DNA from: Podarcis gaigeae
Lineage: Eukaryota
Assembly: GCA_964106915.2 (NCBI GenBank)
Contig: OZ066916.1
Reading direction: 5' to 3' (one strand)
DNA length: 64,000 nt
Shown here: piece by piece, positions 16,680 to 62,889 of the stretch
Layout of the letters: every line of letters begins with the position of its first letter
How positions within the stretch are numbered: the stretch's first letter is position 1
Translations under genes and position numbers: made by a program
The notes under the pieces: model-generated
Database searches by the model: none
What the model was told of the DNA's origin: nothing
What the model saw: only the letters and a program-made list of their open reading frames with translations

Positions 16680-18630
16680 GCAGCACGTGCGCAAGCGTCG
16701 GGTGCTGCTGCTGGATCTGCCTTTACGCTCGGCTGCCCAGCTCGGACGTGCGCCCCCCGCCGTGTTTAGATGATACCTTTATTTGCAAAGGCGAAGAGGC
16801 AGATCCAGCCTACCCACCCCCACCCCCACCCCTCTCCGATCTGAAACGGACATGTCTTTGGCCATCCGCTTTCCTCGCCTCCTCATTGTTGCACGCGCGT
16901 TACGTTGTTGCCAACAAAGGCGATGTAGCAAAACCACACAGAAGGGGGGCAAATGATCATAGCAGCGAGGAAGGAAAAGCCCGTCTTGCGATGTGTCACA
17001 CATCCATAAGGGGATGCTTCTGCCTGGCTTTTGCATAACCCTGGTTTGCCTGCCTCTTTTTCTCCTCCTTTTCCGAAGGAGGCAGCGCTGGAGAACGGGG
17101 GGGGGGGGGGCGCCGAGCGGGAGGGGAAGAAGACCGAGAGCCGAGAGCGAGCGAGCGAGGGGGCGGCCGGGGGCTCTCGCTGCCCTTCTCCCACAGAACG
17201 ACCTTCCCCGCGGAAGGCGCTGCTGTGGGTGCGCGGCGCCAAGAGGGGGCCGCGAGAAACCGAGGGGGTGGCGGTCCCTCACAACAGGAGCCCCCTCTGC
17301 CTGCGCGCTCCGTCAGCCTCGGCTCTCCTTCTCGCCCACCCCAACCCGGCCGAGCGGCTCCGACTTCCTCGGCGAGCGGGTCGAAACCGCGAGGCTTCGC
17401 TGCAGGGGGGTGGGGGGGTGGGAGGCGAAGCGGGAAGACCGCGGCGACACCAGCCGGCGTCTTCCACAGCAGCAGCAGCAGCAGCGACCCCGCGCGCGCC
17501 TCACATCACCACCAGCAGCCCAGCCACCCTCTCTCCCCCCCCCACCTCGCTCGGTCGCGCGCCCGCCGGTCGCGCGCGTGCGCGAGCCCCAGGCTGAGTC
17601 CTTTCTCTCTCCGTGTCTCCCTCTCCTGCTTCTCTCTCTGTCTTTCTCCGAGCCTCCTCCATCCAGCACCGGCGCCGAGGATGGGCAGCGAGAGCGCGCG
17701 CAGGAGCAGCCCCGGCTCGGCCGCTCCCCCCTGCGCCCGCTCTTGCTCGTGCTGCTCCTCTTGCCCCGCTGCCCCCAGGGCGGCGCCTCGGCTGCGCTCC
17801 CGCCTTTTCCCACCGAGGACGGGTGAGTGAAGGAGTGGCTCCTCCCTCGGAGCACCTGCTCTAGCCGGCGAAGGGGGTGGCGGCGGGGGGCGGGCGAGGG
17901 GTGAATTTTGGCGCGCTCTCGGTCTTCGGGGCAAGTGGCGGGCGGCTGCCTGAGGGGGACAAGTCAGTCAGTCAGTCAGCGGCATTCCTGCCCCGCAGGG
18001 AAAGGGAGCAGGCTCGCCTTTGGGCAGCCCCTCATAGCAGAGGAAACCGTCGGAGGGAAGGAGAGCGAGAAAGGGAGCCTGTTCTTGGGACGAGGATAGA
18101 AACAACAGCTTCCCAATCTCGGGTCCAGCGCCCCAGAACCCTCCAGCGTGGTTTTTGAATAGCACGTGTCCCTCTTGGCCTCTGGGAACACTGGGCACCT
18201 TCTTCCTCTCGCTCATCCTTTTTTTACCCATTTTGAGTCCTCAGCCCAGCCGAAGAGACCTTTCTCTGAGAGCTGCTCCTTTCCGAGCAGCTATTAACTT
18301 TTCCTGATTTTTTTGGTGCTTGTTTCGAAAGAGAGAAGTGGATGAAGAGGAGCTGTGGAGGTTTTCCCCCTCGACAGTCCCTTCATGCCCTTGCAGGCTT
18401 CTCTCCTTTCCCTCCTCCTCCTCCTGCTCCTTGCCGTACAATGAAGTCTTTAAAAGAGATTCCTGCTTGCCCGCTAGCTGGCTGGGCTCGCGCCAGGACT
18501 TCTCCACGGGAGCGCTGGACCATTCCTCGCGACTGAGCAAAGAATGCCATCTATGCAGAAGAAGAGGGCACCCTGCACACCTGGCTCTCCAGGGCTGCGG
18601 TGATGTGATTGGGGGCCATAGGTAAGCCGT
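16680..18630. promoter_or_regulatory. FUT9: CpG island, inferred FUT9 promoter and first-exon region
   Basis: Abrupt GC- and CpG-rich block in AT-rich surroundings, with GC boxes, an E-box CACGTG (~16684), G-runs, a (CAG)n tract and a CT-rich tract. It is the only non-TE CpG island upstream of the FUT9 coding exon. Confidence 0.85.
17450..17822 (+). other. FUT9: Putative FUT9 first exon (5' end approximate), ending at donor GG|GTGAGT
   Basis: Consensus donor GTGAGT at 17823-17828 inside the CpG island; the TSS cannot be placed from sequence alone. Confidence 0.6.
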
Positions 18631-22917: not shown

Positions 22918-23114
22918 ATAGGTAGCTGTGTTGGTCTGCCATAGTCAAAACAAAAAAAAATCCTTCCAGTAGCACCTTAAAGACCAACTAAGTTAGTTCT
23001 TGGTATGAGCTTTCGTGTGCAGGTATCTGAAGAAGTGTGCATGCACACGAAAGCTCATACCAAGAACTAACTTAGTTGGTCTTTAAGGTGCTACTGGAAG
23101 GAATTTTTTTTGTT
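22918..23114. mobile_element. Penelope-like element fold-back insertion containing a hammerhead ribozyme
   Basis: Long inverted arms centred near 23021; 13-bp TSD TAAACAAATAAAG (22905-22917, 23115-23127); same family as 1994-2176. Confidence 0.82.
23022..23061 (+). ncRNA. Minimal type I hammerhead ribozyme motif, sense to FUT9
   Basis: GGUAU-CUGAAGA-A-GUGUGC-AU-GCACAC-GAAA-GC-UC-AUACC; predicted cleavage 3' of C23056. Confidence 0.8.
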
Positions 23115-23178
23115 TAAACAAATAAAGCAATGGAATAAAACTGGAAAATTCACCTATGATTCAGAAGAACAGATTCCT

Positions 23179-23500
23179 TCATTTAACATAATCCTGCAAA
23201 TAGCTTGGAGCATGATGTCTAGTCCTTGCTTGGTAGCATTGACCATGGAGTGCTGGATTTGATGCAGCAGGAGTGGTGAGCAGGATGACATTGTCCCTTT
23301 CTATGAAGTTATCATCTTCGGGTCTTTCAGTGGTACTGGAACGTGGTTTAATGTGAGATACATTTCTTGTGACTTTGCAGATCCTGTCTGCGCAGTGTCC
23401 GTTGTGTTCATGTAGAGTAGTTTCTGTCACTAATGGAATTGGGCAGGCACCTTCAGTGTACTCCTTTTCACACTTGCTAAAAATGTTTTTGTTTTGGCAA
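23179..23500 (-). mobile_element. Remnant of a Ty3/Gypsy pol (integrase) C-terminus
   Basis: The minus-strand frame contains VTRNVSHIKP and ends ARTRHHAPSYLQDYVK*; both are typical of Gypsy pol C-termini (VTRNxSHF; R..R..PxYLxDYV*). Confidence 0.55.
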
Positions 23501-61778: not shown

Positions 61779-61812
61779 TTCCTATTTCCATCTTCCCTTC
61801 ACAGATCAAATT
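61779..61812 (+). other. FUT9: Splice acceptor of the FUT9 coding exon (AG at 61803-61804; exon starts 61805)
   Basis: Polypyrimidine tract plus CAG immediately before ATCAAATT-ATG. Confidence 0.85.
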
Positions 61813-62889
61813 ATGACATCATCACCCAAAGGAATTTTCCGGCCATTTCTATTTATCTTCATTGTGCTGGGATGCTTCATGGCATGTCTGCTTATTTATA
61901 TCAAACCGACAAACAGCTGGATATCTGGTCCTATTGAATCAGCCAGCTCTGTTCTAAAAATGAAGAACTTCTTCTCCACCAAAAATGATTATATCAATGA
62001 GACAACTATTCTGATATGGGTATGGCCGTTTGGCCAGACATTTGATCTGAAATTCTGCCCAACATTTAACATCCACGGGTGCCATCTGACTACAGACCGC
62101 ACACTATATAACCAGTCTCATGCCGTTCTTATTCACCACAGAGATATCAGTTGGGATCTGACTAATTTACCTCAGCAACCTAGGCCGCCATTTCAAAAAT
62201 GGATCTGGATGAACTTGGAATCACCAACACATACTCCACAAAAGAGTGGGATTGAGCATCTATTCAATTTGACCCTCACTTATCGTCGAGATTCAGACAT
62301 TCAAGTGCCTTATGGCTTTATGGTAGTTAGCACAAGCTCCTTTCCATTTGAAATGCCGAATAAAGAAAGACTGGTGTGTTGGGTGGTGAGTAACTGGAAC
62401 CCAGAGCATGCTAGGGTCAAATATTATAATGAACTAAGTAAATACCTTGAGATCCATACCTATGGGCAAGCATTTGGAGACTATGTGAGTGATAAAAATT
62501 TGATCCCAACCATCTCCGCTTGTAAGTTTTACCTTTCCTTTGAGAATTCTATCCACAGAGACTATATCACAGAGAAGCTTTACAATGCTTTTCTTGCTGG
62601 ATCTGTGCCAGTCGTTCTAGGTCCTCCTAGAGAAAACTATGAGAATTACATCCCTGCTAGTTCTTTCATTCACGTGGAGGATTTTCTCTCTCCAAGGGAC
62701 CTCTCAGAGTATCTTCTTTTGCTCGACAAAAATGATAAACTGTATGTTAGCTACTTTGACTGGAGGAAGGATTTTTCAGTGCACCTTCCTCGATTTTGGG
62801 AATCACATGCATGCCTTGCCTGTGACCATGTAAAAAGACACCAGGAATACAGGTCGGTTGGCAATTTAGAAAAATGGTTTTGGAATTAA
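61813..62889 (+). CDS. FUT9: Alpha-(1,3)-fucosyltransferase 9 (GT10 family, type II Golgi membrane protein), single coding exon, 358 aa
   Basis: Translation MTSSPKGIFRPFLFIFIVLGCFMACLLIYIKPTNSW...EKWFWN closely matches the vertebrate FUT9 sequence as I recall it. It has an N-terminal TM anchor, the alpha-1,3-FucT motif FYLSFENSIHRDYITEKLYNAF, and sequons NET/NQS/NLT. The conserved start is the ATG at 61813, 8 nt after a pyrimidine-rich acceptor (ttcctatttccatcttcccttcacag|). The first 12 codons of the ORF-track extension (61768-61803) are intronic. Confidence 0.98.
   Translation: MTSSPKGIFRPFLFIFIVLGCFMACLLIYIKPTNSWISGPIESASSVLKMKNFFSTKNDYINETTILIWVWPFGQTFDLKFCPTFNIHGCHLTTDRTLYNQSHAVLIHHRDISWDLTNLPQQPRPPFQKWIWMNLESPTHTPQKSGIEHLFNLTLTYRRDSDIQVPYGFMVVSTSSFPFEMPNKERLVCWVVSNWNPEHARVKYYNELSKYLEIHTYGQAFGDYVSDKNLIPTISACKFYLSFENSIHRDYITEKLYNAFLAGSVPVVLGPPRENYENYIPASSFIHVEDFLSPRDLSEYLLLLDKNDKLYVSYFDWRKDFSVHLPRFWESHACLACDHVKRHQEYRSVGNLEKWFWN

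Follow-up and report, generated by a model that had tools for sequence, protein, structure and literature searches.

We found that an upstream exon of the glycosyltransferase gene FUT9 in Podarcis gaigeae (hereafter exon A) carries an ATG that opens a reading frame into the FUT9 coding exon, and that, as judged from protein sequences, this ATG, its frame and the resulting 50-residue extension are conserved in lizards, snakes and birds. The original prediction had allowed a 1-in-3 chance that the phase was accidental. Sixteen database proteins share the ORF, its frame and the junction peptide, and two more have the extension with an in-frame insert, so the phase is not such an accident. The conserved extension likely marks a real, old and minor isoform of FUT9 with a long tail, one of several 5′ splice forms of the gene. 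In our preferred reading, which we consider somewhat more probable than its negation, the conserved frame encodes a 50-residue extension of the FUT9 cytoplasmic tail through direct splicing of exon A, with translation predicted from the sequence. The window in which these features were located is a 64,000-nt stretch of contig OZ066916.1 (assembly GCA_964106915.2), and all stranded features given below are on its plus strand.

The canonical FUT9 coding sequence (61813..62889) is a single exon encoding 358 aa. It contains the Glyco_tran_10_N and Glyco_transf_10 domains (PF17039 and PF00852), its best matches are named FUT9, and it shares 92% identity with a snake FUT9 and 86% with a mammalian FUT9. 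The single N-terminal membrane helix of the FUT9 type II layout was also found. Near residue 85, the squamate proteins (358 aa) have a common single-codon gap relative to the bird proteins (359 aa). The 3′ acceptor AG (61803-61804) and the 8 nt preceding the canonical ATG (together 61803..61812) lie directly upstream of the coding sequence. As the original prediction had pointed out, the canonical ATG at 61813 is without a G at +4; it does, however, have an A at -3, so its context is adequate and not weak.

The upstream ATG (17681-17683) has an A at -3 and a G at +4, and it is the only ATG in the interval 17016-17822. This strong-context ATG opens the coding part of exon A (17681..17822), which holds 47 codons and 1 nt and is followed by the 5′ splice donor GTGAGT (17823..17828). 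The donor agrees with the junction of the database models, and none of the three RNA contigs described below uses it. When exon A is joined directly to the acceptor, its 142 nt combine with the 8 nt that lead up to the canonical ATG into 150 nt free of stop codons, which predicts a protein of 408 aa (50 + 358). The coordinates originally predicted for the ATG, the donor, the acceptor (61805) and this stop-free frame were all exact. The surrounding region (17001..18000, unstranded) has a GC content of 0.71 and a CpG observed/expected ratio of 0.68-0.98 in 200-nt bins across 17000-17999, and the segment 17670-17830 has a single match in its own genome. The region is a CpG island that likely contains the FUT9 promoter and first exon.

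Exon A has other features that we note in passing. A CT-rich tract at 17600-17666, with AGs at 17651 and 17665, contains look-alikes of 3′ splice sites 5′ of the upstream ATG, and with these exon A may at times be used as an internal one; the bird equivalent seems to lack the tract. The -1 frame of the exon (17680-17822) resembles a signal peptide with a leucine run, is without an ATG, and would lead to a stop after 91 codons upon direct splicing. A hidden second frame in exon A was considered and set aside, the -1 and +1 frames both being without a start codon. Eight squamate substitutions were found in the exon, two of them silent in the -1 frame and six in the +1 frame, the latter number arising because six of the eight are first-position changes.

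To describe the predicted protein, we examined its hydropathy, structure and motifs. The long form has one hydropathy peak, in windows starting at residues 57-65, and the extension is without a second membrane segment. Because it has no hydrophobic segment, the predicted effect of the extension is a longer cytoplasmic tail; starting at the in-frame ATG upstream changes nothing else, and the membrane and catalytic parts are common to both forms. Structure prediction gave a mean pLDDT of 29, in which a helix at 59-79 was seen and the rest was unusable. The extension contains a cluster of Cys residues (18, 22, 24, 25 and 28 in exon A) that is common to both groups, squamates having five Cys, or six in one case, and birds four. 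The squamate forms of the two other motifs that had been proposed for the extension do not recur in birds. The Met-Gly myristoylation pattern, of PROSITE type, fits all eight squamate proteins and none of the ten bird proteins, which have a Pro at position 7. Likewise, RxR motifs at 37 and 39 (residues 37-41), about 20 residues from the membrane, are present in 8/8 squamates and absent from these positions in birds, where RxR occurs only at position 20 (8 of 10). Under the preferred reading, the likely working parts of the extension would be its first 18 residues, which are conserved, together with the Cys cluster.

We then compared the extension across collected proteins, so that exon A conservation among relatives was judged at the protein level. 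In a set of 250 proteins that includes many fish paralogues, the extension was present in 18 (8 squamate and 10 bird entries). The direct junction was found in 16 of these 18, while the other two, the ibis and gull models, carry a further 50-aa in-frame insert. The second-best protein match is a viper FUT9 of 408 aa, and an entry of the same length from Podarcis muralis and Lacerta agilis (P0137) equals the window protein in both extension and body. The peptide of exon A is also identical in P0149, P0152, P0154 and P0155. Three geckos and Rhineura match the P0137 extension at 50/50 residues (bodies 93-97% identical), two snakes at 46-47/50 (body 92%) and seven birds at 33-36/50 (body 85-89%). 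The bodies of the lacertid and the three geckos are 93% identical, and zero changes in 47 codons at the body's rate would have p ~0.03-0.04 per gecko, the three geckos not being independent. Extension length is 50 in squamates and 49, 51 or 52 in birds, and all the differences are whole codons. Radical changes, mostly to proline, separate lizard and bird at residues 37-43, which counts against a constraint on the protein. We considered whether a frameshift that was compensated nearby separates lizard from bird and rejected this, as an alignment with no shift and with whole-codon gaps accounts for the data.

Among the matches listed, the extension was absent from 10 turtle entries, 1 alligator entry and 26 mammal entries, as well as from the listed members of two amphibian clusters (15 and 14 listed). 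At most 15 members per cluster were considered (e.g., 15 of 61, 222 or 459), so the absence outside squamates and birds is weak. Conservation of ATG, frame and Cys cluster across squamates, birds and turtles had been proposed as a check; it held for the first two groups and did not appear in the turtles (0/10 listed entries). Also among the matches listed, Zootoca, Erythrolamprus, Elgaria and several birds have the short form only, a point against the long-tail isoform. The 47-aa peptide has no match to a Pfam family, and it was found in none of the proteins among 50%-identity representatives and in none of the shorter proteins (25 candidates). When metagenomes were scanned for exon A DNA from a relative, none of 597 pattern matches was confirmed. 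The alternative FUT9 N-termini of snake, bird and marsupial have no convincing match within the window. Six codons at 18230-18247 agree with an alternative N-terminus in a FUT9 model from zebra finch (P0127, E 0.045), possibly as a conserved element and possibly by chance.

The putative direct exon A junction is clearly not the only form of the FUT9 5′ end. The RNA evidence comes from eight of 24 listed runs of relatives, whose class was guessed and not recorded as RNA; the contigs were taken to derive from spliced RNA because they break off at GT donors that lie 38-43 kb upstream. The contigs X2, X6 and X7, each from a different study, break at 61803-61804, and the intron 5′ of the acceptor is essentially uncovered. 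Acceptor 61805 is joined to donor 18621 in two of them (X6 and X7) and to donor 23275 in the third (X2, depth 43). The junction 17822>61805, which had been proposed as a check on RNA, occurs in 0/3 of these junction-bearing contigs, which drop rare forms, compared with 16 database gene models, on which the in-frame junction rests. Exon A, for which 17000-18400 was examined, had no coverage in X1, X5, X12 and X23, which is uninformative since a filter may drop reads; X21 had 6 reads, without a loose end listed. The length of the X2 contig, 11,853 nt, implies a 3′ UTR of about 10.7 kb running from 62890 onward past the end of the window.

These joins define two alternative upstream exons, each with a putative 5′ end. 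Exon B (18478..18621) has its 3′ end at the ends of the X6 and X7 contigs and is followed by the donor GTAAGC at 18622; it could be a cassette exon or the end of another first exon. Exon C (23168..23275) has its 3′ end at the end of the X2 contig and is followed by the donor GTGAGC at 23276. Short uORFs occur in both exons, and neither has an open ATG in frame. Assuming colinearity, the X6 contig starts 1 nt 5′ of an AG-defined 144-nt exon and the X2 contig starts 2 nt 5′ of a 108-nt exon. Judged from these lengths, with 30 letters visible, the contig starts would be as expected for internal exons. When exon A is combined with them in the computed layouts A>B, A>C and A>B>C, which no contig links, the ORF from 17681 has 66-78 codons and stops 21-201 nt before the canonical ATG. 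The original prediction had cautioned that an intervening exon would turn the ATG into a uORF, and exons B and C, which do join the acceptor, bear this caveat out.

Several smaller observations concern the region around these exons. Low-depth contigs (X1 and X5) span 17975-18357, between exons A and B, and reflect either RNA left unspliced or an alternative first exon of greater length. The strong-context ATG of exon C (23245-23247) differs by one base in the relative's X2 contig, so relatives vary at this uORF start. Just 5′ of exon C, an inverted repeat (22948-23115) with 74-nt arms, 99% complementary, and a 20-nt spacer is probably a small transposon remnant.

The conservation of exon A could also be explained by a role other than encoding a tail. 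It is possible, at a probability well short of even, that exon A has been conserved as a regulatory 5′ leader, its ATG kept mainly as a repressive uORF or the exon under DNA or RNA constraint (from promoter, splicing or RNA structure), and that the 408-aa fusion is a minor by-product of exon skipping whose protein has no function of its own. All three observed junctions go through exon B or C, and in each of the computed layouts the ORF ends before the canonical ATG; the start of the X6 contig 1 nt 5′ of the 144-nt exon looks as if exon B were internal. A low-complexity peptide with an identity above that of the catalytic domain would moreover be odd for a flexible tail. Among five birds, about 24 codons 5′ of the ATG are 93.7% identical, compared with 94.2% for the extension and 97.0% for the body, and with conservation this even on both sides of the ATG, constraint at the RNA or DNA level is possible. 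However, a pure uORF or non-coding element needs no frame with an exon 44 kb away, whereas the frame is kept despite length changes in 18/18 recovered proteins (long proteins being visible only where the model is in frame), and the ibis and gull insert is in frame too. The match between lizard and bird also jumps at the ATG. When the lizard was compared with five birds, 15-16 of the first 18 codons past the ATG matched, against 4/18 (ungapped) of the 18 codons 5′ of it, and the homologous segment 5′ of the ATG aligned best in another frame.

We regard it as very improbable that the in-frame ATG arose by chance in a GC-rich, stop-poor island and that the long models are annotation artefacts copied across species. 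The frame is indeed open far upstream, its nearest in-frame stop lying at 17036, and every long form is an automated model whose direct junction is seen in 0/3 contigs. Against this, annotation has no power to create a 50/50 genomic identity between lacertid and gecko and 33-36/50 with birds, and the lack of a long model in close relatives such as Zootoca would argue against blind copying.

Under the preferred reading, that of a minor long-tail isoform, transcription would start upstream of 17681; five bird models that begin 55-115 codons further 5′ of the ATG would fit such a start site. In directly spliced transcripts, scanning ribosomes would initiate at 17681, and the product would be a type II membrane protein of 408 aa. 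Its tail would grow from about 10 to about 60 residues, and the membrane helix (~59-79) and catalytic domain would be unaltered. Transcripts with exon B or C would produce the 358-aa form, and in those that combine exon A with B or C the ATG at 17681 would open a uORF of 66-78 codons that lowers output. The Cys cluster, a possible site of S-acylation, and the 18 conserved residues at the N-terminus may change the sorting or the lifetime of the long form, an effect that we propose by analogy with the long tails of B4GALNT2 and GM3 synthase.

A more elaborate version of this scheme would be a splice switch in lizards, snakes and birds, in which direct splicing yields an S-acylated, rerouted FUT9 and a cassette exon places a repressive uORF before the short enzyme. 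We consider such a switch unlikely. Its details, namely that constraint on the Cys-rich tail exceeds that on the catalytic domain and that the Lewis X enzyme is rerouted within or beyond the Golgi, seem to us equally doubtful.

The split between lizards and birds dates back roughly 280 million years. If the preferred reading is true, a tail extension kept since this split would be an overlooked isoform, directly testable in chicken, and would give sauropsids a means of tuning Lewis X that is seemingly missing in mammals. If exon A is a conserved uORF instead, it would mark a long-lived translational control element. FUT9 makes Lewis X (PMC9279290). The main text of a survey of translated human 5′ UTRs makes no mention of FUT9, which its supplements could list (PMC11317171). 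We found no paper on long FUT9 in reptiles or birds in a literature search conducted mostly outside subscription journals. Long FUT9 is not new to the databases, as it is already in automatic catalogues, often as RefSeq isoform X1. The X1 models (e.g., XP_028578835.1, XP_032999342.1 and XP_015140150.3) are automated predictions of squamates and birds, and a homologous extension is present in those of chicken and duck.

The cytoplasmic domain of FUT9 is reportedly relevant to its intra-Golgi localisation, a result ascribed to Brito et al. in 2008. FUT4 reportedly has a long form as well, for which our literature search gave no confirmation. Human FUT9 is the same enzyme with the same short canonical tail, and the extension is absent from the 26 mammalian entries listed. 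Tail length is described as controlling the position of Golgi enzymes (PMC9959560, PMC8840164). In human B4GALNT2, the choice between alternative first exons determines whether the cytoplasmic tail is long or short, and the membrane and luminal parts are identical (PMC9959560). This enzyme resembles long FUT9 in being a Golgi type II glycosyltransferase whose forms differ in the tail only, but the protein and the extra post-Golgi localisation of its long form have been demonstrated (PMC9959560), whereas the FUT9 long form is predicted from sequence. FUT9 further differs from B4GALNT2 in that inclusion of other exons may make the same ATG a uORF. The M1, M2 and M3 isoforms of GM3 synthase (ST3GAL5/SAT-I) differ in N-terminal tail length, and the long form carries arginine residues (PMC8840164), as would long FUT9. 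An Arg-rich motif, which must lie at a distance from the membrane, keeps M1 in the ER (PMC8840164); in comparison, the FUT9 RxR motifs at 37-41 are some 20 residues from the membrane and occur in squamates only. By analogy with B4GALNT2 and GM3 synthase, long FUT9 likely joins the Golgi glycosyltransferases with long-tail isoforms, with a function that is predicted.
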